Origin: a virus
Lineage: Duplodnaviria; Caudoviricetes
Reading direction: 5' to 3' (one strand)
DNA: 26,151 nucleotides
Virus record (IMG/VR): IMGVR_UViG_3300010362_000584
Location: 1 to 26,151 of that record
Shown here piece by piece: positions 10,743 through 20,393 of this stretch. Each line of letters starts with the position of its first letter. The stretch's first letter is position 1. The position numbers and the translations under genes were made by a program. The notes below the pieces were generated by a model, which was given only the letters and a program-made list of their open reading frames with translations, was not told where the DNA came from and searched no databases.

Positions 10743-11664
10743 CGAGCGCATCGGCGACCTGGTCATTGCGACCCCGAGCGGGGGCGGCACCGGGTCGCTG
10801 ATCGACTCGGACCTGCTGCAGTACTTCCCCCAGCCACTCACCCAGTTCAACGGCTGGGTGTACGGCACCGACAGCGTGCCGACGGCCGCCAATCGGGGCA
10901 TCGAGCGACGCGGCAAGCAGTGGATCCCCGACAACAACATCCTGCTGCTCTACCCGCCCGGTTTCCCGGGCCCGATCCAGGGCGGCGAGTACGAGATCAG
11001 CATGCGCTACCCGAGGCACAGGAAGATGGCCGCGCTCAACTCGGCCATCAGCCAACTGGGCCTGCTGTGGTACCGCCAGATCGTCGACGAGACGCTGGTC
11101 ACCGAGGTCAACCGCTGGATCTACGAGCCCGACCCCGTCCAGAACTGGGCCAACATCTACCGGGTCGAGATCCAGATCAACACGGCCGAGGAGCAGATCG
11201 GCTACCCGTTCGCCGACGCCGAGTACCTGAACTGGCGCTCCAGGCGTTGGGTGGACACCCTTGGCGCCGAGCACTGGGCCATCGAGTTTGCCATCCAGCC
11301 GCCGCCCGACCGCACCCTGCGCATCTTCGGCGAGGGCTTCTACCCCAACCTGCAGTTCGACGACGATGTGCTGGCGATTGCGGGCAAGTGGGAGGGTGGC
11401 GCACTGGAATGGGTCTACGACTGGGCCGAGTTCAGGCTGAACGACAGCATCTCCAACCGCCTGCCGACCGGTGAGGCAGAACGCATCAGACAGCAGGCGC
11501 TCGATAGGTTGGAGCGGCAGAAGAACGATGTGCTCAACAACGCCCCGTCGCACATGCCTGGGCGGATCGTGACCCCAGGCCACGGCGACGCGATGGCCTT
11601 TCCGAGTCCCGAGGACTGGCGCTTCCTGGGCGCCTTCAAAAGTGCTTCGTTCCGGCTGGGATAG
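10705..11664 (+). CDS. Putative head-tail adaptor (tail tubular A / P22 gp4-like position)
   Basis: GGAGTGAGG RBS before TTG 10705; helical N-terminus, 'ALNSAISQL', beta-rich middle with 'IQPPPD', helical C-terminus; lies between MCP and nozzle. Confidence 0.6.
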   Translation: MAQVARTLIRELSERIGDLVIATPSGGGTGSLIDSDLLQYFPQPLTQFNGWVYGTDSVPTAANRGIERRGKQWIPDNNILLLYPPGFPGPIQGGEYEISMRYPRHRKMAALNSAISQLGLLWYRQIVDETLVTEVNRWIYEPDPVQNWANIYRVEIQINTAEEQIGYPFADAEYLNWRSRRWVDTLGAEHWAIEFAIQPPPDRTLRIFGEGFYPNLQFDDDVLAIAGKWEGGALEWVYDWAEFRLNDSISNRLPTGEAERIRQQALDRLERQKNDVLNNAPSHMPGRIVTPGHGDAMAFPSPEDWRFLGAFKSASFRLG

Positions 11665-12121
11665 TGTTCCAAGTATGACCACTTGCCGCACGCTTGACGG
11701 GCGAGTAGCTAAGCCACCAGTACGCTACCTTCCAGATGGCGTACGTGCTGCTTCCCTGCTTGCACAGCCAACGGATGTTGGCGACCTGCTCGGGCGTCAG
11801 CTTGCGGTTGTGAGCATGGCCCCACTTCGGGTCACGCCTGCCTTTGGTGTCCATGTCCTGCACATTTTCAAGCTGCGTCCCCAGCCACAGATGAGGCAGG
11901 TACACGCAGCGCGGGCGGTCGCACGTGTGACACACGTTCAACCCGTCAGGGATCGGACCCCGCGCTCGCATCCAGGCCACACGTGCCGCACGCTCGGTAT
12001 GCCCCAGGTAATGGCAGGTAGGCGAGTTGCCGGGCCAGAGCAAACACTCGCCATCCTGAATCAAACGCAGCCACGGGCTGTTCCTGTATACCAAGCCGCG
12101 AGGTCTCATGCGCCTAAGCAT
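11636..12121 (-). CDS. HNH (His-Cys box-like/HNH_3) homing endonuclease with C-terminal HTH-like segment
   Basis: CLLWPG, RVAW, GPIPDGLNVCHTCDRPRCVYLPHLWLGTQLENVQDMDTKGR, KLTPEQVANIR; antisense to the operon; start could be 12109. Confidence 0.85.
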   Translation of the reverse strand: MLRRMRPRGLVYRNSPWLRLIQDGECLLWPGNSPTCHYLGHTERAARVAWMRARGPIPDGLNVCHTCDRPRCVYLPHLWLGTQLENVQDMDTKGRRDPKWGHAHNRKLTPEQVANIRWLCKQGSSTYAIWKVAYWWLSYSPVKRAASGHTWNTIPAGTKHF

Positions 12122-12300: not shown

Positions 12301-14372
12301 TGGCCGTCATCCCCTGGCCGAACCCGATTCCGGGCCAGCCTGACCAGGTCATCATCGACGGCATGCCCATGCAGGTCGTGCCGGGTAAGTACTCGGTCGA
12401 GGAGGCCGACCGCTTCGGCGAGAAGGTGTCCTCGGGGGCGCTCAGCTACTCCGACTTCAACCCGTACGAGAACGCCTGGGCCATTTCCGCTCTGGTCGGC
12501 GGGGCGGGATTGAGAAGGTACTCGGACGCGGGCGACGACGTCGACAAGTACATCACCCTGTACACCGAGTCGACCAACGTCAACTGTGCCTTCGCGCCGA
12601 TTGTGCTCAGTCCGCAGGTGCTGCTGAACACGCTACCGGGCGCGACCGCGCCCGCCGTGTGGATGGGCGAGGACTGGCGCTCGAACGTGGCGGGCGAGGC
12701 CAAGCGGCTGCTGGCCGTGGCCAGCAAGGGCGCCGACACGGGCGTGTACGTACGCACCAGCGGCGGACCATGGACGTTGTGGGCGACGATCACGGCCAAG
12801 ACCGACCCCGTGCCGACGGCCATCGGCATCTACGAGGGCACGCTCGTGGTCGGCTACGCCTCGCGCCACCTGGCCGCCAGCGTCTCGGCAGCGGGCGTGG
12901 TCGGCACAGTCACCCAGGACGCCAGCGAGCCCGCTGGGGTGCAGCCGCTGTACGTCTGGGCGTTCACCTCGGACCACGCCTCGGCGTTCGTCGCGGGCGG
13001 GCCGAGCGTGACCGACTACTACCGGGTCATGTCCAGCGTCGACCCGCACCAGTTGTACTCCAAGCCCGTCGCCACGGGTGACTCGATGGTCGCCAGCCTG
13101 GCCCCAGGCGGCGGGCTGGTCAGCGTGTACGTGGGCAAGATCTCGGAGCTTGGCTGCATCACCCTGTCGGCGGTCTACCAGAGCCTGATCCCGTTCGACT
13201 CGCGCCTGGACACCAACTGCAAGCCGATGAAGTGGCTGCTCGCCTCGGGTGCCGACCAGCAGCGCGGCAGCCTGACCCTGGTCTTCCCGCGCGACCGGTC
13301 CTTGTGGGAGTACGCGCCCGCCGACCAGTTCTCAGGCACAGCTAGCTGCATTGCGCCGTGGGCGCAGAACTTTCGCCGCCCGCCCAACGCGCGCGGTAAG
13401 GTGACCGCGCTCATCGGGTCGAGCCGCTGGCTGTATTACGCGGTGCAGAACTCGGCGGGCAACACGTGGATCTGGCGCAACGACCAGAGCACCGGGTCGC
13501 CGCACACGTACCTGTACCTGGGCGCGGTGACCGTCTCGGCCATGGCGGTCACCCACCTGTTCAGCGGCAACCCGCTGCTGCTGTTTTCCATCGGCACCCA
13601 GATCGGCTCGGTCATCCTGCCGCTCGACGGCGACGCCGAGTTTGACGACCCGAGCACGCGCTACGCCCTGCAGGGCTACCTGGATCTGCCCGACGTCGAC
13701 CTGGGCTTCCCCGACGAGGACAAGATCGGCTTCGGGGTGCGCATCATCGCCGACAACCTGGCGGGCCTGAACCGGTACATCAGGGTCGAGGCGAGCATCG
13801 ACGGCGGCGCCTGGGTCGACATGGGCATCGCCAACCAGAGCCCGTCGGACGAGCTTGACTTCCCGATCAACAACATCCCGCGCGCCAAGCGGCTCAAGCT
13901 GCGCGTGTGGCTGTACACCGACGACGCGACGGTCTCGCCCCAACTGTGGGGCATCTCGCTGCGCGTGAGCCTGAACACCAAGGTCTATCGGCTATTCGTG
14001 CTGCAGACACGTGTGCCCGCTGGTAGCTTCTCGACGCTCGCCGACGACCTGCAGAACCCGTACCTGCAGATCCTGCACTCGTGGGTCATCAGGCGGGCGG
14101 GCTTCCCGGTCTCGTTCGCCGACCCGTGGAACGACCCGTACTGGGTCAGGGTGCTCAAGGTCCAGCAGCAGCAGGCGCTGCGCGAGCCCGACCGCACGCC
14201 CGAGTGGGTCATCGACTGGACGCTGCTGGAGTTCCTGGCGGGCGACGTCGAGACCGGTGAGTTCCGCTACGACATGGACTGGACAACCGATCCGCCCAGC
14301 CACCCCGAGGAGCAGGACCTGTATGGCTATGACCAGCCGCTGGCCACGTATGCTGGGGACCAGAGCTTCTGA
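12300..14372 (+). CDS. Putative tail nozzle / tubular B / stabilisation protein (beta-propeller)
   Basis: 690 aa, beta-rich repeats; C-terminal 'DLGFPDEDKI...IDGGAWVDMG...LKLRVWL...SPQL' typical of podovirus nozzle proteins; position. Confidence 0.65.
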   Translation: MAVIPWPNPIPGQPDQVIIDGMPMQVVPGKYSVEEADRFGEKVSSGALSYSDFNPYENAWAISALVGGAGLRRYSDAGDDVDKYITLYTESTNVNCAFAPIVLSPQVLLNTLPGATAPAVWMGEDWRSNVAGEAKRLLAVASKGADTGVYVRTSGGPWTLWATITAKTDPVPTAIGIYEGTLVVGYASRHLAASVSAAGVVGTVTQDASEPAGVQPLYVWAFTSDHASAFVAGGPSVTDYYRVMSSVDPHQLYSKPVATGDSMVASLAPGGGLVSVYVGKISELGCITLSAVYQSLIPFDSRLDTNCKPMKWLLASGADQQRGSLTLVFPRDRSLWEYAPADQFSGTASCIAPWAQNFRRPPNARGKVTALIGSSRWLYYAVQNSAGNTWIWRNDQSTGSPHTYLYLGAVTVSAMAVTHLFSGNPLLLFSIGTQIGSVILPLDGDAEFDDPSTRYALQGYLDLPDVDLGFPDEDKIGFGVRIIADNLAGLNRYIRVEASIDGGAWVDMGIANQSPSDELDFPINNIPRAKRLKLRVWLYTDDATVSPQLWGISLRVSLNTKVYRLFVLQTRVPAGSFSTLADDLQNPYLQILHSWVIRRAGFPVSFADPWNDPYWVRVLKVQQQQALREPDRTPEWVIDWTLLEFLAGDVETGEFRYDMDWTTDPPSHPEEQDLYGYDQPLATYAGDQSF

Positions 14373-14941
14373 TGCCTCTTGACACGACGCGTATGGTCCC
14401 GCGCGGTCACCTGATCTCGACTGACATCAAGCAGTACGCCGACCTGCTGCTGGGCAGCATGGTCGACCAGCCGGTGTTCCTGAACAACACGCTGCGGCTG
14501 GGCAGTTACCTGCAGCAGTCGATCATCCTGACCCCTGCTCTGCCTCCGTCGGGCAGCCTGCGCATCTACCCCAAGAGCGACAACCACCTGTATCAGCTTG
14601 ACTCGTTGGGGGTGGAGACTGACCTGACCACGGGCGGCTCGGGCACGACCGAGGTGTGGATCGACCCGGAGGAGCCGGCACCACGCGACGACCTGGTGCT
14701 GTGGGTCGACACCGACCAGTCGGGTGGTGGGGGTGGCGGTGGCGGCGACCTGAACTATGTGCACACGCAGACCGCGCCGTCGACCACCTGGACGGTGGTG
14801 CACAACCTGGGCAAGTACGCGGCCGTCGACGTGGTCGATAGCGGCGGCTCGGTGGTCATCCCTGATGTGCACTACGACAGCGCCGCGCAGGTGACCCTCA
14901 CGTTCGGCTCGGCCACTTCAGGAAAGGCGTACATGAACTGA
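14372..14941 (+). CDS. Tail fibre anchor/adaptor protein (189 aa)
   Basis: N-terminus paralogous to the 18816 fibre; LWVDTD half-module; poly-Gly linker; C-terminal 'TWTVVHNLG' domain; TGATG coupling. Confidence 0.7.
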   Translation: MPLDTTRMVPRGHLISTDIKQYADLLLGSMVDQPVFLNNTLRLGSYLQQSIILTPALPPSGSLRIYPKSDNHLYQLDSLGVETDLTTGGSGTTEVWIDPEEPAPRDDLVLWVDTDQSGGGGGGGGDLNYVHTQTAPSTTWTVVHNLGKYAAVDVVDSGGSVVIPDVHYDSAAQVTLTFGSATSGKAYMN

Positions 14942-16416
14942 TGCCTACGCTCGGTGCAAGCCTGGACTTTGCCAAGTACGAGGGGCGCAACCTCCGGGGC
15001 CACCAGCTAGGCACCGCGCCGTCGTCGCCCGTCACCGGTCAGCTTTACTACAACACCGCCGACAACACCCTGTACTGGTACGACGGCAGCCAGTGGGTCT
15101 CGGCCAGGGGCGGCGCGGCGTCGGTCCCGCCCGCCACCACGGGCGCGCTGGGCACCATCCAGCTAGCGGGCGACCTGAGCGGCACGGCGACCAGCCCGCA
15201 GATTGCAGCGGGCGTGATCACCGACGTCGAGGTGGCGGCGGCGAACAAGGACGGGCTGCAGGGCACGGCCAGCATGCGCACGCTCGGCTTCGGCGCTCAG
15301 CAGGCGCTGTACGGCAACGTCGCACTGAACCAGATCCAGGTGCCGACTGGGTCGCTGCTGCTGAACAACCAGCGCATCGCCAGCATGGCCGATCCGACCG
15401 CTGCAACCGACGCGGCGACCAAGCAGTATGTGGACAACCTGTCGCAGGGGCTGGACACCAAGCTGTCGGCCAGGGCCATAGCGACGACCAACATCACCCT
15501 GTCGGGCACCCAGACCGTGGACGGCGTGGCCCTGGTGGTGAACGACCGGTGCGTCGTCGCGGGTCAAAGCACGGCTGCCAACAACGGCATCTACTCGGTC
15601 CAGTCGGGCGCCTGGACGCGCACCACCGACGCCGACACGTGGAACGAACTGATCTCGGCGTACGTGTTCATCGAGAGTGGCACGGCCAACGCCGACAGCG
15701 GCTGGCTGTGTACCGTCGATCCCGGCGGCACGCTCGGCTCGACCGCCGTCACATGGACCCAGTTCTCGGGCGCTGGCCAGATCACCGCTGGTGCGGGCCT
15801 GACCAAGACCGGCAACACGCTCGACGTGGTCGCGGGCGACACCTCGCTGACCGTGGCGGCGGACAACGTGATCGTCAACACGTCGGTCATCGCCACCGTG
15901 GCCAGCGTGGCGGCCAAGGCTAATTCGAGCACCACCATCACCGCTGGCAACGGGCTGACTGGCGGCGGCGATCTAACGACCAACCGCACGCTCGACGTGG
16001 GCGGCACGACCAACCGCATCACCGTGGCGGCCGATGCCGTGGACATCGCGGCGACCTACGTCGGGCAGACCTCGATCACCACGCTTGGCACCGTGGCTAC
16101 CGGCACATGGAATGGCACTACGATAGCCGTGGCCAACGGTGGGACGGGCCAGACGACGGCCAAGGCTGGGCGTGAGACGGGGCTCGGCGCGGCGGGCTAC
16201 TATTCCAGCGCCACGCACGGTGCGGGCACCTCGATCAGCATCACCCAGGCCACGCACGGGCTGCGCGCCAGCCGTGGCCTGCTGGTCCAGGTCCAGGAGG
16301 AGGCTACCGGCAACGTGGTTATCCCAGACATCTCGGTCGCCGCCACGGGCGACGTGACGGTGACCTTCGGTGCGAGCGTGTCGGCGAACGCGTATCGGGT
16401 GACGGTCATCGGCTGA
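14941..16416 (+). CDS. Tail fibre protein (491 aa)
   Basis: APSSPVTGQLYYNT..LYWYDG.QW, GTIQLAGDLSG, DAATKQYVD, NITLSGTQTVDG..NNGIY..WTRTTDAD, ITAGxGLT repeats. Confidence 0.85.
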   Translation: MPTLGASLDFAKYEGRNLRGHQLGTAPSSPVTGQLYYNTADNTLYWYDGSQWVSARGGAASVPPATTGALGTIQLAGDLSGTATSPQIAAGVITDVEVAAANKDGLQGTASMRTLGFGAQQALYGNVALNQIQVPTGSLLLNNQRIASMADPTAATDAATKQYVDNLSQGLDTKLSARAIATTNITLSGTQTVDGVALVVNDRCVVAGQSTAANNGIYSVQSGAWTRTTDADTWNELISAYVFIESGTANADSGWLCTVDPGGTLGSTAVTWTQFSGAGQITAGAGLTKTGNTLDVVAGDTSLTVAADNVIVNTSVIATVASVAAKANSSTTITAGNGLTGGGDLTTNRTLDVGGTTNRITVAADAVDIAATYVGQTSITTLGTVATGTWNGTTIAVANGGTGQTTAKAGRETGLGAAGYYSSATHGAGTSISITQATHGLRASRGLLVQVQEEATGNVVIPDISVAATGDVTVTFGASVSANAYRVTVIG

Positions 16417-16625
16417 TGCCCGAGATCCCTGGTACGCTCAAGCCGCCCCGTCTGGCGAGCGCCCCCGGTACCCCTGTGCTCGGTCAGATGTACGCCAACA
16501 CGGCCAGCAACACGGTCTACTGGTGGAACGGTACGGTCTGGCTGTCCGTCTCGCCCGAGGTGCACGTCGGCACCGCCGCGCCCAGCCCGCGCGTGAATCA
16601 AACACTCTGGGTGGACACGACCTGA
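16416..16625 (+). CDS. Small tail fibre linker/adaptor (69 aa)
   Basis: One full APxxPVxGQxY..WxG..W module plus a terminal half-module LWVDTT; TGATG coupling on both sides. Confidence 0.7.
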   Translation: MPEIPGTLKPPRLASAPGTPVLGQMYANTASNTVYWWNGTVWLSVSPEVHVGTAAPSPRVNQTLWVDTT

Positions 16626-18514
16626 TGGCTGTTCTGAAGTACTGGGACGGCGCCGCCTGGCAACTGGTCTCGGGCGGTGGCGGCAGCGTGACCTGGCCGC
16701 TGCTCGCGCCCGACGGCAGCGCCGCTGCGCCCAGCTACGGCTTCGGCAGCAGCGCGGCGGGCCTCTACTCCAACGGGCTGGCCGTGAACATTGCCAGTGG
16801 CGGCGTGGTGCGTATGGCCGTCGGCGGCACCACGGTCCTCTACAACGGGCTGCAATGGGGCACCGACAATACCAACGACATCGGTAACAACCTGTCGGCC
16901 CGCCCGCGCAATCTGTACCTGGGCGGGAACCTTGACCTGGGCGGCACGCGCATCAAGGCCAAGTTCGACGAGTACTACGACGCCAACTCGACGTACTTCA
17001 TGACCAACAATGCCGTCGCCAACGGCAGCCCGAACACGTACCTGACCGTCCTGCCGGACGACACGCCGGGCAACGTGGGCTCCACGACGGGCATCAACCT
17101 GTTGGACAACCCGACCGTGGCCTCCGCGCACTACTTGCTGTTGCAGAAGGGCTACAACCAGGCGACCGTCTCGTCGGACCAGACGCTGTACATCGGCACT
17201 GCTGCCAGCGCTGTCGTGAACTTCGTCATCGGCGGGTTCACCCGCTGGACGCTCAATACCAGCAACCACATCGTGCCGGCCACCAGCAACACCAACGACA
17301 TCGGTACGAGCAGCCTGCCCGTGCGTGCGCTATACGTCGGCACGTCGATTGCCACCCCGGCCTTGATCCCGCCCGCCAACATCTTCGAGCAGCGCAACAG
17401 CACCAGCCCGCAGGTCTGGCGGCTGTACAACACGTACACCGACACGAACAACTACGAGCGATTCGTCATCTCGTGGGGCGCGAATCAGGTCAGCATCCAG
17501 AACGAGGCGGCGGGCACCGGGTCGATCAGGCCGATCATCTTCAACGGTGGCACGGCCACGGTCAACTTCAACACGGCCCAGGTCTTCGCCTGGCAGACCA
17601 ACAGCGCCACCAAGTGGGCCATCGTCACCTCCGAAGGTGGGCACTGGCGACCAGGCCCCGACAACGCCCTGGACCTGGGTACCGCTGCCAACCGAGTCCG
17701 CAACGTGTACGTGGGCAGCGGTATTGGCATCGGAACCAGTCCAGCGACAGATCGCGGCCTGGGTATTGGAACGGCTGCACTCGCGGGTACGGCCCAGTAC
17801 GGGGCCGTGATCAACCCGCCGTTCACGTCGGCGGCGACGACGCTTGGCACGGCGGTCTACGCCGGAGTCCAGACGCAGGCTGCGGCCTTCACCATGACTG
17901 ATGCCCATGCCTTCCGGGCCTGGAGCCCAAATCTCGGCGCTGGCTCAAGTATTACCAACACCTATGGCATCAGGGTTGAGAGCCAGGGCGGGACGGGCAT
18001 TACCAACGCCTATGGCGTCTACATCGCCGCGCAGGCCGGGGCGAGCACGACCAACATCGGCCTGTACAACGCGGGCACCACGCAACTGGTCGGTGCGGTC
18101 ACGTTGCCCAACGGCACGGCACAGGCGTTACTCGGCAGGTACGAGGGCCAGAGCATCTCGTGGAGCACCGCGCTCACAGGCTGGCAACCCGTCACGCCCG
18201 CCCAGGTGACCGTGACCGTCACGTCGGGCACCGCGCTGCTGCGCGTGGAGTGCGGCATCACGCTCTCACACAGCGCGGCCAATGGCTCGTGGTACGTCAC
18301 GCTGGGGCAGAACGGCAACCCGTACTTCCAGCAGACGTTCAACCTGTCGCCTACGGCCGGCGTCCCGTTCCCCGTCTCGTTTACGCGCTACCTGGGGCCG
18401 GTGTCGCCCGGCAGCTACACGTTCCAGATCTTTGTCTATAACAACGTGGCAGGCACGCTGACGGCCTACGCCAACTCGCTCGCGTGGATCTACGTGACCG
18501 AGCAGCGATGCTGA
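16625..18514 (+). CDS. Tail fibre / receptor-binding protein (629 aa)
   Basis: Start at ATG 16625 (TGATG); DGSAAAPSYGF module, three 'xNxxDxG...RxxYxG' repeats, C-terminal beta-sandwich. Confidence 0.8.
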   Translation: MAVLKYWDGAAWQLVSGGGGSVTWPLLAPDGSAAAPSYGFGSSAAGLYSNGLAVNIASGGVVRMAVGGTTVLYNGLQWGTDNTNDIGNNLSARPRNLYLGGNLDLGGTRIKAKFDEYYDANSTYFMTNNAVANGSPNTYLTVLPDDTPGNVGSTTGINLLDNPTVASAHYLLLQKGYNQATVSSDQTLYIGTAASAVVNFVIGGFTRWTLNTSNHIVPATSNTNDIGTSSLPVRALYVGTSIATPALIPPANIFEQRNSTSPQVWRLYNTYTDTNNYERFVISWGANQVSIQNEAAGTGSIRPIIFNGGTATVNFNTAQVFAWQTNSATKWAIVTSEGGHWRPGPDNALDLGTAANRVRNVYVGSGIGIGTSPATDRGLGIGTAALAGTAQYGAVINPPFTSAATTLGTAVYAGVQTQAAAFTMTDAHAFRAWSPNLGAGSSITNTYGIRVESQGGTGITNAYGVYIAAQAGASTTNIGLYNAGTTQLVGAVTLPNGTAQALLGRYEGQSISWSTALTGWQPVTPAQVTVTVTSGTALLRVECGITLSHSAANGSWYVTLGQNGNPYFQQTFNLSPTAGVPFPVSFTRYLGPVSPGSYTFQIFVYNNVAGTLTAYANSLAWIYVTEQRC

Positions 18515-18815: not shown

Positions 18816-20393
18816 ATGCCCCTGGACTCCACCAACTTCTACCCCAAAGGCCCTGTGCTGGCGGGGGACATGAAGCAGTTCTACGACCTGGCCACGGGGG
18901 TCATGCTCGACCAACCGGTGACCTACCGCAACGTGCTCAGCGTCGGCGGCAACCAGGGGCTGACCACGGTACCGCTCAAGATCTACGGTGCGACGGGCCA
19001 GAACACCAACCTGATTGACCTGTACGCCGACCGCTCGGCACCCCAGCCTGGCTTCGGCTTCAACGCCGCTGGCGCCTTTGCCTGGGGCCCTGGTGGTGCG
19101 GCGCCGCAGGACACCTTCCTGTCGCGCATCGGCACCCAGGTCGACGCGACCGACCGCCCCGGCCTGCTGATCAACCCCGACCTGCGCGTGAGCAGCACGC
19201 TGACCGTCGGCGTCTCGATCAGCCTGCCCACCTCGGGCGCGATCATCTTCGGCGCGGCCAACCGTCTGCGCGGTGACCTGAGCAACGTCACGCACGCCCA
19301 GCGGCTGCTGTTCCTGGGCACCACCTCGAACACGTCGAGCGTAATCGGCATCATCCCCAACGGCTCGGGCACCGCCTCGGGCTTCAACTCGTACAACAGC
19401 AGCAACCCCGACCTGGCCAGCTACGTGCAGCTAGGCATGAGCAGCACCAGCGCCACGCTCATCAGCAGCCACACCGGTACGGCGGGCGACTTGCCGCTGG
19501 TCATGGGCGCGGGCACCACGGCCAGGCTGACCATCCCAACCGCTGGCTACGCGACCTTCGCGGGCGTCTCGGTGTGCGTGCCCAACAGTTCGTACTACGC
19601 GGCCATGGATACCGGCGGCGTGCAGCGGCCGATGTTGTGGCAGGACAGCTTGAACAACACGGTCGTCCAGGCGGGCGGGGCGAACGTGACGCGCTTCCTG
19701 AACCAACCCGTCTCGGTCGAGTGGGCGCGCTTCGACGCCACCCACCTGACCGTTAACTACCAGGAGTCCATCGTCTACATCCCACCGGCCGTCAGCGCGT
19801 CGTCGTACCTGACGGCCATGCTGGAGCTACGGACCAACGCCAGCGTCCCGCCGCAACTGTCCTTCCACATGCCAGGCGCCATCGGCGGCACGATGTACAT
19901 GCCCGTGGGCGGCTGGCCACGCTGGATCCTGAACACGAGCACGGACTACGCGTTCGTGATGGACGGCCTGACCCAGACGCTGACCAGCAAGACGATCACC
20001 AGCCCGACGCTCAACGGGACCGTGGCGGGCCAGCCTGGCTGGGCGAGCGCACAAGCCTTCCCCGCCTCGACCACGGTCGGCGGCCGTCCGATCATGCTCG
20101 GCTACGCCAACGCCAGCGACTACCAGGTCGACTACGGCATCACCGGTATGGTGACCATCCCCGCTGGCGGGGCAGGCAACACGGCAGTCAGCTTCAACCA
20201 CGCCTTCTCCACACCACCGGCCATGGTCCAGGTCACGCTGACCAGCTTCTCGGGGGCGATCTCGAACGGGCTAAGCAAGATGGGCTCACCAAATGTGCAC
20301 GGCATCGGGACCAACGGCTTCTTTGTCGACCTGGACAACCAGACCGGGGGCTCGCAGGCCGTGCAGTTCGCCTGGCTGGCCATCGGCCGCTAG
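18816..20393 (+). CDS. Second anchored tail fibre / receptor-binding protein with C-terminal H-type-lectin/gp53-like domain
   Basis: N-terminal anchor paralogous to 14372; QTLTSKTITSP; C-terminal VSFNHAFSTPP..V...TNGF...WLAIG. Confidence 0.8.
   Translation: MPLDSTNFYPKGPVLAGDMKQFYDLATGVMLDQPVTYRNVLSVGGNQGLTTVPLKIYGATGQNTNLIDLYADRSAPQPGFGFNAAGAFAWGPGGAAPQDTFLSRIGTQVDATDRPGLLINPDLRVSSTLTVGVSISLPTSGAIIFGAANRLRGDLSNVTHAQRLLFLGTTSNTSSVIGIIPNGSGTASGFNSYNSSNPDLASYVQLGMSSTSATLISSHTGTAGDLPLVMGAGTTARLTIPTAGYATFAGVSVCVPNSSYYAAMDTGGVQRPMLWQDSLNNTVVQAGGANVTRFLNQPVSVEWARFDATHLTVNYQESIVYIPPAVSASSYLTAMLELRTNASVPPQLSFHMPGAIGGTMYMPVGGWPRWILNTSTDYAFVMDGLTQTLTSKTITSPTLNGTVAGQPGWASAQAFPASTTVGGRPIMLGYANASDYQVDYGITGMVTIPAGGAGNTAVSFNHAFSTPPAMVQVTLTSFSGAISNGLSKMGSPNVHGIGTNGFFVDLDNQTGGSQAVQFAWLAIGR

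Follow-up and report, generated by a model that had tools for sequence, protein, structure and literature searches.

In anchor-branched receptor-binding systems, a conserved N-terminal peptide of one protein docks on a T4 gp10-like domain of another, as described for the Klebsiella phages KP32, K11 and KP34 and for phages G7C, K1-5 and CBA120 (PMC13352976, PMC6872550, PMC8825819). The dock is a complete β-jellyroll of ~60 residues (XD2/XD3; PMC8825819). Here we analyse the fibre genes of a 26,151-nucleotide (nt) stretch of viral DNA (IMG/VR record IMGVR_UViG_3300010362_000584; the window), in which a small fibre module is divided between the products of two adjacent genes, 16416 and 16625. We term the first half of the module the socket and the second half the plug. 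As in the anchor-branched systems, a fibre without an anchor of the type seen in protein 14372 starts with a short conserved peptide, here the plug, by which it would dock on a probably anchored assembly, and a shortened protein can persist as a bare adaptor, as 16416 seems to do. The locus differs in its dock, which is not gp10-like: a 22-residue half of another module takes this place, and the docking peptide is the other half.

In chaperone-usher pili, subunits are joined by donor-strand complementation, the N-terminal segment of one subunit completing the fold of the previous one. The window shares this principle, whereas pilus subunits are monomeric, have an Ig fold and require a chaperone, and the connector described here is a small, probably trimeric β module with a donated hairpin. 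We found no description of the split module in open-licence PMC and bioRxiv texts. We conclude that socket and plug form a real, widespread and probably functional connector that works like the Klebsiella branching-domain/peptide systems. That the 16416 socket and the 16625 plug bind by rebuilding the module between separate chains is our preferred reading of the sequences, with a probability of roughly 0.7.

A fibre module divided between genes 16416 and 16625

The module is present in intact form in the 14941 and 16416 proteins (Table 1). The 16416 protein then ends in a further first half, EVHVGTAAPSPRVNQTLWVDTT, with its stop codon at 16623-16625, and the 16625 protein begins with the second half, MAVLKYWDGAAW, its ATG overlapping this stop codon (TGATG). 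When the two halves are aligned end to end with the intact module, they cover it completely and do not overlap. Profile comparison against a 13-row alignment of intact modules gives the same register, with 40 sockets corresponding to columns 7-25 (probability 80, E 1.4e-5) and 28 plugs to columns 27-39 (probability 93, E 2.7e-7). The motifs on which the initial annotation of this DNA had built its proposal of plug-and-socket complementation, namely the intact modules, the half-module at the end of 16416 and the complementary start of 16625, were all recovered at their positions. The TGATG coupling it reported is likewise present, though the starts of 14372, 14941, 16416 and 16625 all carry this overlap, so that the coupling is not special to the 16416/16625 pair.

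A small indel in the assembly could have split one gene, as the initial annotation itself had considered for a single nucleotide at ~16623; correcting such an error would fuse the frames in register, and the depth is ~8. An 852-base contig (depth 7.7) spanning 15997-16848 is identical at the junction, with 0 differences and 0 gaps, although the same run may be the source of the window and the reads are then not independent. The error is refuted by an unrelated contig, L516, which encodes a 67-residue orthologue of 16416 behind the end of a 14941-type gene; this protein ends in ..PSPRTSQVLWVDTS, followed by TAATG and MAVLKYWDGAGW, and thus shows the same split with another stop codon. We regard the probability of an assembly error as negligible. 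None of 11 longer relatives of 16416 fuses a 16416-type protein to a plug; the socket is internal in 3 of the 11, and in the relatives P0004 and P0005 the same socket precedes a long body. Based on the matching contig, the split in L516 and the lack of a fusion among the longer relatives, the division of the module at the 16416/16625 junction is real and conserved. The end-to-end arrangement of the window recurs in L516, L392, L254, L514, L424, L430 and L421, and the sockets most similar to that of 16416 are internal ones of the form EV.V.T..PSPRV...LWVDT in L187, L464, L496 and L504, each of which is followed by a near-identical plug.

The exact register of the halves would also be expected from a programmed frameshift at TGATG that yields a covalent 16416-16625 fusion and completes the module in one chain. 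Single-chain forms do occur in other phages, with socket, a linker of up to ~10 residues and plug in one protein (L200, L252, L203, L010); in L200, the socket is followed by 10 residues and then by AVLKYWDGAAW, identical to the sequence in 16625. However, the region 16501-16630 contains no XXX-YYY-Z slippery heptamer (Y = A or T), TGATG is found at the start of each of the four genes, and the junction itself varies, being TAATG in L516 and a distance of 49 nt in L424. A frameshift also leaves internal sockets with a plug gene one to three genes later unexplained, and the longer relatives of 16416 lack the fusion. We therefore consider this explanation very unlikely.

In a single-chain model of the 16416 protein, residues 11-40 form a three-stranded module with a predicted local distance difference test (pLDDT) score of 93, while the orphan half contains no strands. 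The best fold matches of the module are collagen XV, CBA120 TSP3 and Mtd (Z 3.5-3.8). Its neighbours, the collagen XV/XVIII trimerisation domain, Mtd residues 5-49, the C-terminal module of TSP3 (583-623) and a streptococcal phage hyaluronan lyase fibre, are weak but consistent (all Z 2.7-3.8). From these neighbours, the module is presumably a trimer of the Mtd/collagen XV trimerisation type. The family PF26696 (PTL_trimer, 'phage tail like trimerisation region') is matched by 3 of the 11 longer 16416 relatives, one of which is 65% identical over 99% of 16416, the position of the PF26696 match within the proteins not being given. The Pfam scan returned no family for 16416 itself or for the 40 socket rows. 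Searches of PDB sequences with the socket, plug and sandwich profiles (the sandwich is described below) yielded nothing meaningful, and the 16416 profile gave a single weak match to an intact module (9d83, E 0.18). The intact copies found in 14941 and 16416 resemble modules of the PF26696/Mtd type; in solved structures of this type the module lies within one chain, whereas in the window it is also divided over two gene products. An additional resemblance is found in cellular proteins: DUF2510 of actinobacterial proteins (P.GWY.DP.G...LRYWDG..W; for example L404 and L437) is similar to the intact module and has the LRYWDG..W motif in common with it.

In the mechanism that we propose, the 16625 protein would dock on 16416 by completing the module and would thereby form the last link of a four-protein chain. 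Three socket halves, each contributing the first strand, the proline loop and the LWVDT strand, would provide the core, to which the next trimer would add three plug hairpins (LKYWDG..W), making the module whole. At an internal socket, a D[EQ]P or Gly linker would lead the remainder of the socket chain away to the side, giving rise to a branch. Two separately folded trimers could instead dock by their surfaces, as modelled for XD domains and tailspike heads; the known branched systems dock in this manner (PMC8825819), and the co-occurrence data presented below indicate partnership, not geometry. Against surface docking, which we consider improbable, the two pieces tile one module exactly, and at 22 (socket) and 12 residues (plug) each is too short to form a domain of its own.

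Co-occurrence of sockets and plugs

We determined how often the two halves occur together, starting either from the socket or from the plug. The socket-first survey returned 101 matches, 80 of which were analysed with their flanks, leaving 75 true internal sockets in 23 clusters; a plug gene follows downstream in 63/75 loci and 18/23 clusters, as scored with a plug pattern written after seeing the data. The control comprised 79 loci (50 clusters) picked solely as relatives of 14941. Here, the plug pattern occurs in 5/50 clusters (5 of 867 open reading frames (ORFs)), all of them chance-looking, and an orphan socket in 1/50. The difference between the socket-first and control loci corresponds to a Fisher p of 1e-8, a value that is too small, as are the other p-values given here, since the clusters are related lineages. 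Plug-first searches of viral contigs gave 36 matches, 17 of which were dropped as short or unrelated ORFs; among the 19 judged real by eye, near-duplicates included, 15 have an upstream socket and 2 a variant socket, one has a socket solely in its own protein and one is cut off.

For a held-out metagenome set, the socket pattern was fixed beforehand. Three of the 70 plug-first matches were dropped before counting (L460, the window's own region, and two short ORFs), and 29 of the 48 clusters, each with at least 1200 nt upstream, were counted. An upstream socket is present in 15 of these 29 clusters (17/40 loci; p 2e-7 against 1/50 in the control). The remaining 14 lack one by the fixed pattern, some having variant sockets or a socket within their own protein. 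A second plug subtype shows an upstream socket in 5/8 loci (4/6 distinct), four additional loci being the L010 contig again. A scan of genomes for plugs gave 53 matches, mostly internal DUF2510-like motifs, and five gene starts by eye; three of these follow a C-terminal half-module, one is cut off and one has none. Within the 16416 family, both halves are present in 6 clusters, neither in 4 and discordant cases are 0. Just 5 of these 10 clusters were obtained without selection, 1 with both halves and 4 with neither (p 0.2).

The plug is conserved across 28 aligned proteins with divergent bodies. L010, L465 and L496 contain series of genes that all open with a plug, which in most of them is followed by a socket. 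Socket and plug subtypes also appear to be matched: W-Y-D sockets pair with non-aromatic plugs in 10/10 cases and W-[VLI]-D sockets with aromatic plugs in 49/61, a weak pattern over 78 distinct pairs since the sequences are related and one lineage may drive it. L010 provides a W-Y-D socket with an MGVLRARVGG plug. No solved or cultured pair of socket and plug emerged from the PDB or the GenBank phages; a tblastn search of the latter with 16416 gave weak matches alone (best E 5e-4), and the start of the L010 plug gene gave no match. The sole tblastn match that we inspected, phiScoe2, holds an intact module and was rejected as a socket-plug pair.

Two side observations concern the genes around such pairs. 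A tiny gene of ~30-40 codons (..GLGGYD..KPN.NI.E...) often lies between the socket fibre and the plug gene (L154, L156, L160, L162, L168, L172), and its product may be a tip cap or a chaperone. In the Saccharibacteria genome bin L421, a gene that ends in a socket precedes a plug gene in which YWNG..W hairpins are repeated; the pair lies outside any obvious prophage and is flanked, between ~1.2 kb upstream and 0.8 kb downstream of the match, by genes that we take to resemble truB and rpsO.

Several results weigh against binding between socket and plug, in addition to the after-the-fact plug pattern, the relatedness of the clusters, the 14 held-out clusters without an upstream socket and the selected sampling of the 16416 family described above. 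The fold matches of the module are weak. The initial annotation had proposed that genes ending in LWxDT would be followed by plug genes, and this survey turned out mostly negative: among 120 loci, a plug comes next in 0/7 genuine cases of an LW[VI]DT gene end that overlaps the following start as TGATG, and the C-terminal cap ND-LW[VI]DT has a real plug in 1/45 loci, one further locus containing a chance-looking plug match 5 kb away. A half-module can thus exist without a plug partner. One protein family carries three to five tandem sockets followed by a single plug gene (L203, L196, L179), an arrangement in which one plug could fill many sockets or some sockets could stay empty; such a fibre is a possible multi-way branch point. 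Finally, the layout of the window, with two socket genes ahead of one plug gene, is found in none of 37 other clusters (see below).

These results bear on the possibility that the halves are self-sufficient end caps, the socket a trimerising cap at the C-terminus and the plug a hairpin at the N-terminus, which arose by fission of a gene and have since been co-inherited although they do not bind. Within the available DNA, 44 of the 45 ND-LW[VI]DT caps lack a plug, tandem sockets are accompanied by one plug, and neighbouring genes are linked anyway. Most sockets, however, lie inside their proteins, in many cases hundreds of residues away from the gene end, with unrelated bodies behind them; simple fission cannot place them at such positions. 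The 16416 family gains or loses both halves together, and plug genes usually open directly with the plug, no other anchor being evident by eye. We consider the end-cap explanation unlikely and favour binding of the halves, the link to plugs being strong for internal sockets rather than for the ND-LW[VI]DT C-terminal caps. A comparison of the residue preceding LW between sockets and caps is circular, the caps having been selected for N-D, and was not used.

The caps themselves are very common, with I.VGTTAP.SP..NDLW[VI]DTx and then the stop codon in L356-L400, mostly without a plug. The products of the genes after these caps often have MA[IF] and then a short hydrophobic strand at their start, which may mark another partner type.

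A second socket and a second type of junction

The orphan half-module that had been noted inside the 14372 protein, with poly-Gly behind it, was confirmed and is a genuine member of the socket family (Table 1). All of its best matches, L187 and L166/L253, come from loci in which a plug gene is present; over ~29 residues, it shares 55% identity with sockets such as that of L253, directly behind which a plug gene lies. Use of the same plug for both sockets of the window, as initially proposed, is plausible on these grounds; two socket genes ahead of one plug gene are seen in none of the 37 other clusters. In the 38 clusters that measure 7 kb or more (the window is one of them), sockets equal plugs in 24, exceed them in 12 and are fewer in 2, and most commonly each plug is matched by a single socket gene. 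L228 was rejected as a second case with two socket genes, its apparent second socket being an intact module. The close relatives of the region (L277, L278, L279, L286, L303) contain neither half. The 14372 socket may be used or may be the leftover of a lost partner, and we regard it as possible, at somewhat under even odds, that it also carries a copy of 16625.

The interpretation of the fibre as branched and non-covalent likewise stands in part. Complementation has good support from the co-occurrence relative to controls, the register, the single-chain forms with a linker and the independent orthologue in L516, and binding of the halves is likely. The 16416 socket lies at the end of its chain, so its joint is likely end-to-end and not a branch, while the 14372 socket is internal and of the kind that would make a branch.

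A second and different junction type, overlooked initially, would join 14372, 14941 and 16416. A β-sandwich of ~65 residues ends both the 14372 and the 14941 proteins. In the surveyed loci, most of them chosen because they contain such genes, 31 of 32 non-redundant copies of the sandwich end at the C-terminus or no more than five residues before it, and the gene after the sandwich nearly always begins with a conserved peptide followed by an intact module. The junction sites in the window are 14744-14960 and 16201-16460, with a peptide such as M..F..D[LF].KNE.RN. The model of the 14372 sandwich matches residues 187-249 of CBA120 TSP4 (Z 5.3, root-mean-square deviation 1.9, 54 aligned residues) at rank 7, behind a neuraminidase (Z 6.9) and tied with other, unrelated sandwiches. 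By the linker limits given in PMC8825819, TSP4 187-249 is the XD2 domain. Foldseek with the 14372 sandwich returned nothing at E ≤ 0.001. The model points to a possible dock of the T4 gp10 XD2 kind for the N-terminus of 14941. The sandwich/peptide junction may represent a classical branching domain with its conserved peptide, and the HNLG-type sandwich a branching-domain family that is very common, has gone unrecognised and has no Pfam name.

With this second junction, the likely build is 14372 - 14941 - 16416 - 16625. The chain would start at the virion with the probably anchored 14372; its first two joints would each consist of a C-terminal β-sandwich and an N-terminal peptide, and the last joint would be the split module. 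The window phage may thus use both connectors, the split module and the classical sandwich type. In a broader and more tentative proposal, which we consider rather doubtful, the split module is a general snap connector with which many uncultured phages and some cells (Saccharibacteria, L421) assemble chained and branched fibres out of separate gene products, matched subtypes setting the partners, and 16625 is displayed at two heights. If so, one copy of 16625 would sit on 14372 close to the base of the virion, and another on 16416, which would be the tip of a stalk of three proteins.

Most of what has been described about the branching of phage receptor-binding proteins concerns T4 gp10-like domains of enterobacterial phages. 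With a second connector that is recognisable in sequence and measures only ~22 + 12 residues, the wiring of multi-gene fibre clusters could be read from phage genomes of soil, freshwater and gut, many short tail genes now called 'hypothetical' would be accounted for as adaptors, and binding modules could be swapped as whole genes. A possible use is as a minimal trimer-to-trimer protein connector.

Fibre genes and their surroundings

The coordinates of the four coupled fibre genes, of their modules and of a second fibre gene are compiled in Table 1.

Table 1 Fibre genes and connector elements of the window (aa, amino acids)
Feature	Position	Strand	Description
14372 adaptor, 189 aa	14372..14941	+	N-terminal segment, variant module, internal socket, poly-Gly, C-terminal 65-aa β-sandwich
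Internal socket EVWIDPEEPAPRDDLVLWVDTD of 14372	14651..14716	+	followed by QS and eight Gly
HNLG..AYMN C-terminal β-sandwich of 14372	14744..14938	+	model pLDDT 96
14941 fibre, 491 aa	14941..16416	+	N-terminal peptide, intact module, DUF5907 repeat, capsid-decoration-protein-like domain, fibre shaft, C-terminal sandwich of the 14372 kind
Intact module in 14941	15019-15096	+	residues 27-52
16416 adaptor, 69 aa	16416..16625	+	N-terminal peptide, intact module, C-terminal socket (16557-16622)
Intact module in 16416	16464-16541	+	residues 17-42
16625 fibre/spike, 629 aa	16625..18514	+	no 14372-type anchor; match to phrog_1171 tail spike, E 5.3e-5
Plug MAVLKYWDGAAW of 16625	16625..16660	+	second module half, then Gly linker
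18816 second fibre, 525 aa	18816..20393	+	N-terminal segment in common with 14372

The 14941 protein matches 9nx3 (E 2.9e-11) and 9d93 (E 3.3e-5), and its middle part resembles a capsid decoration protein, so that the chain may sit on the head as well as on the tail. The 16625 protein is likely the receptor-binding protein. We found neither plug nor socket in the 18816 fibre. Residues 1-44 of 14372 are 48% identical to the N-terminus of 18816 (E 2e-11; window 14372-14503 and 18816-18947). This 44-residue segment, judging from the sequence similarity, likely serves both proteins as a common virion anchor, and 18816 is likely a separately anchored fibre.

The window covers 26 kb of a high-GC phage from a soil run. 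It further encodes a major head protein (8638) and a large protein with endolysin-like matches near its start. The structural block occupies the plus strand up to 20690, and the replication genes are on the minus strand. Within the structural block, an HNH endonuclease gene at 11636-12121 is located on the opposite, minus strand.

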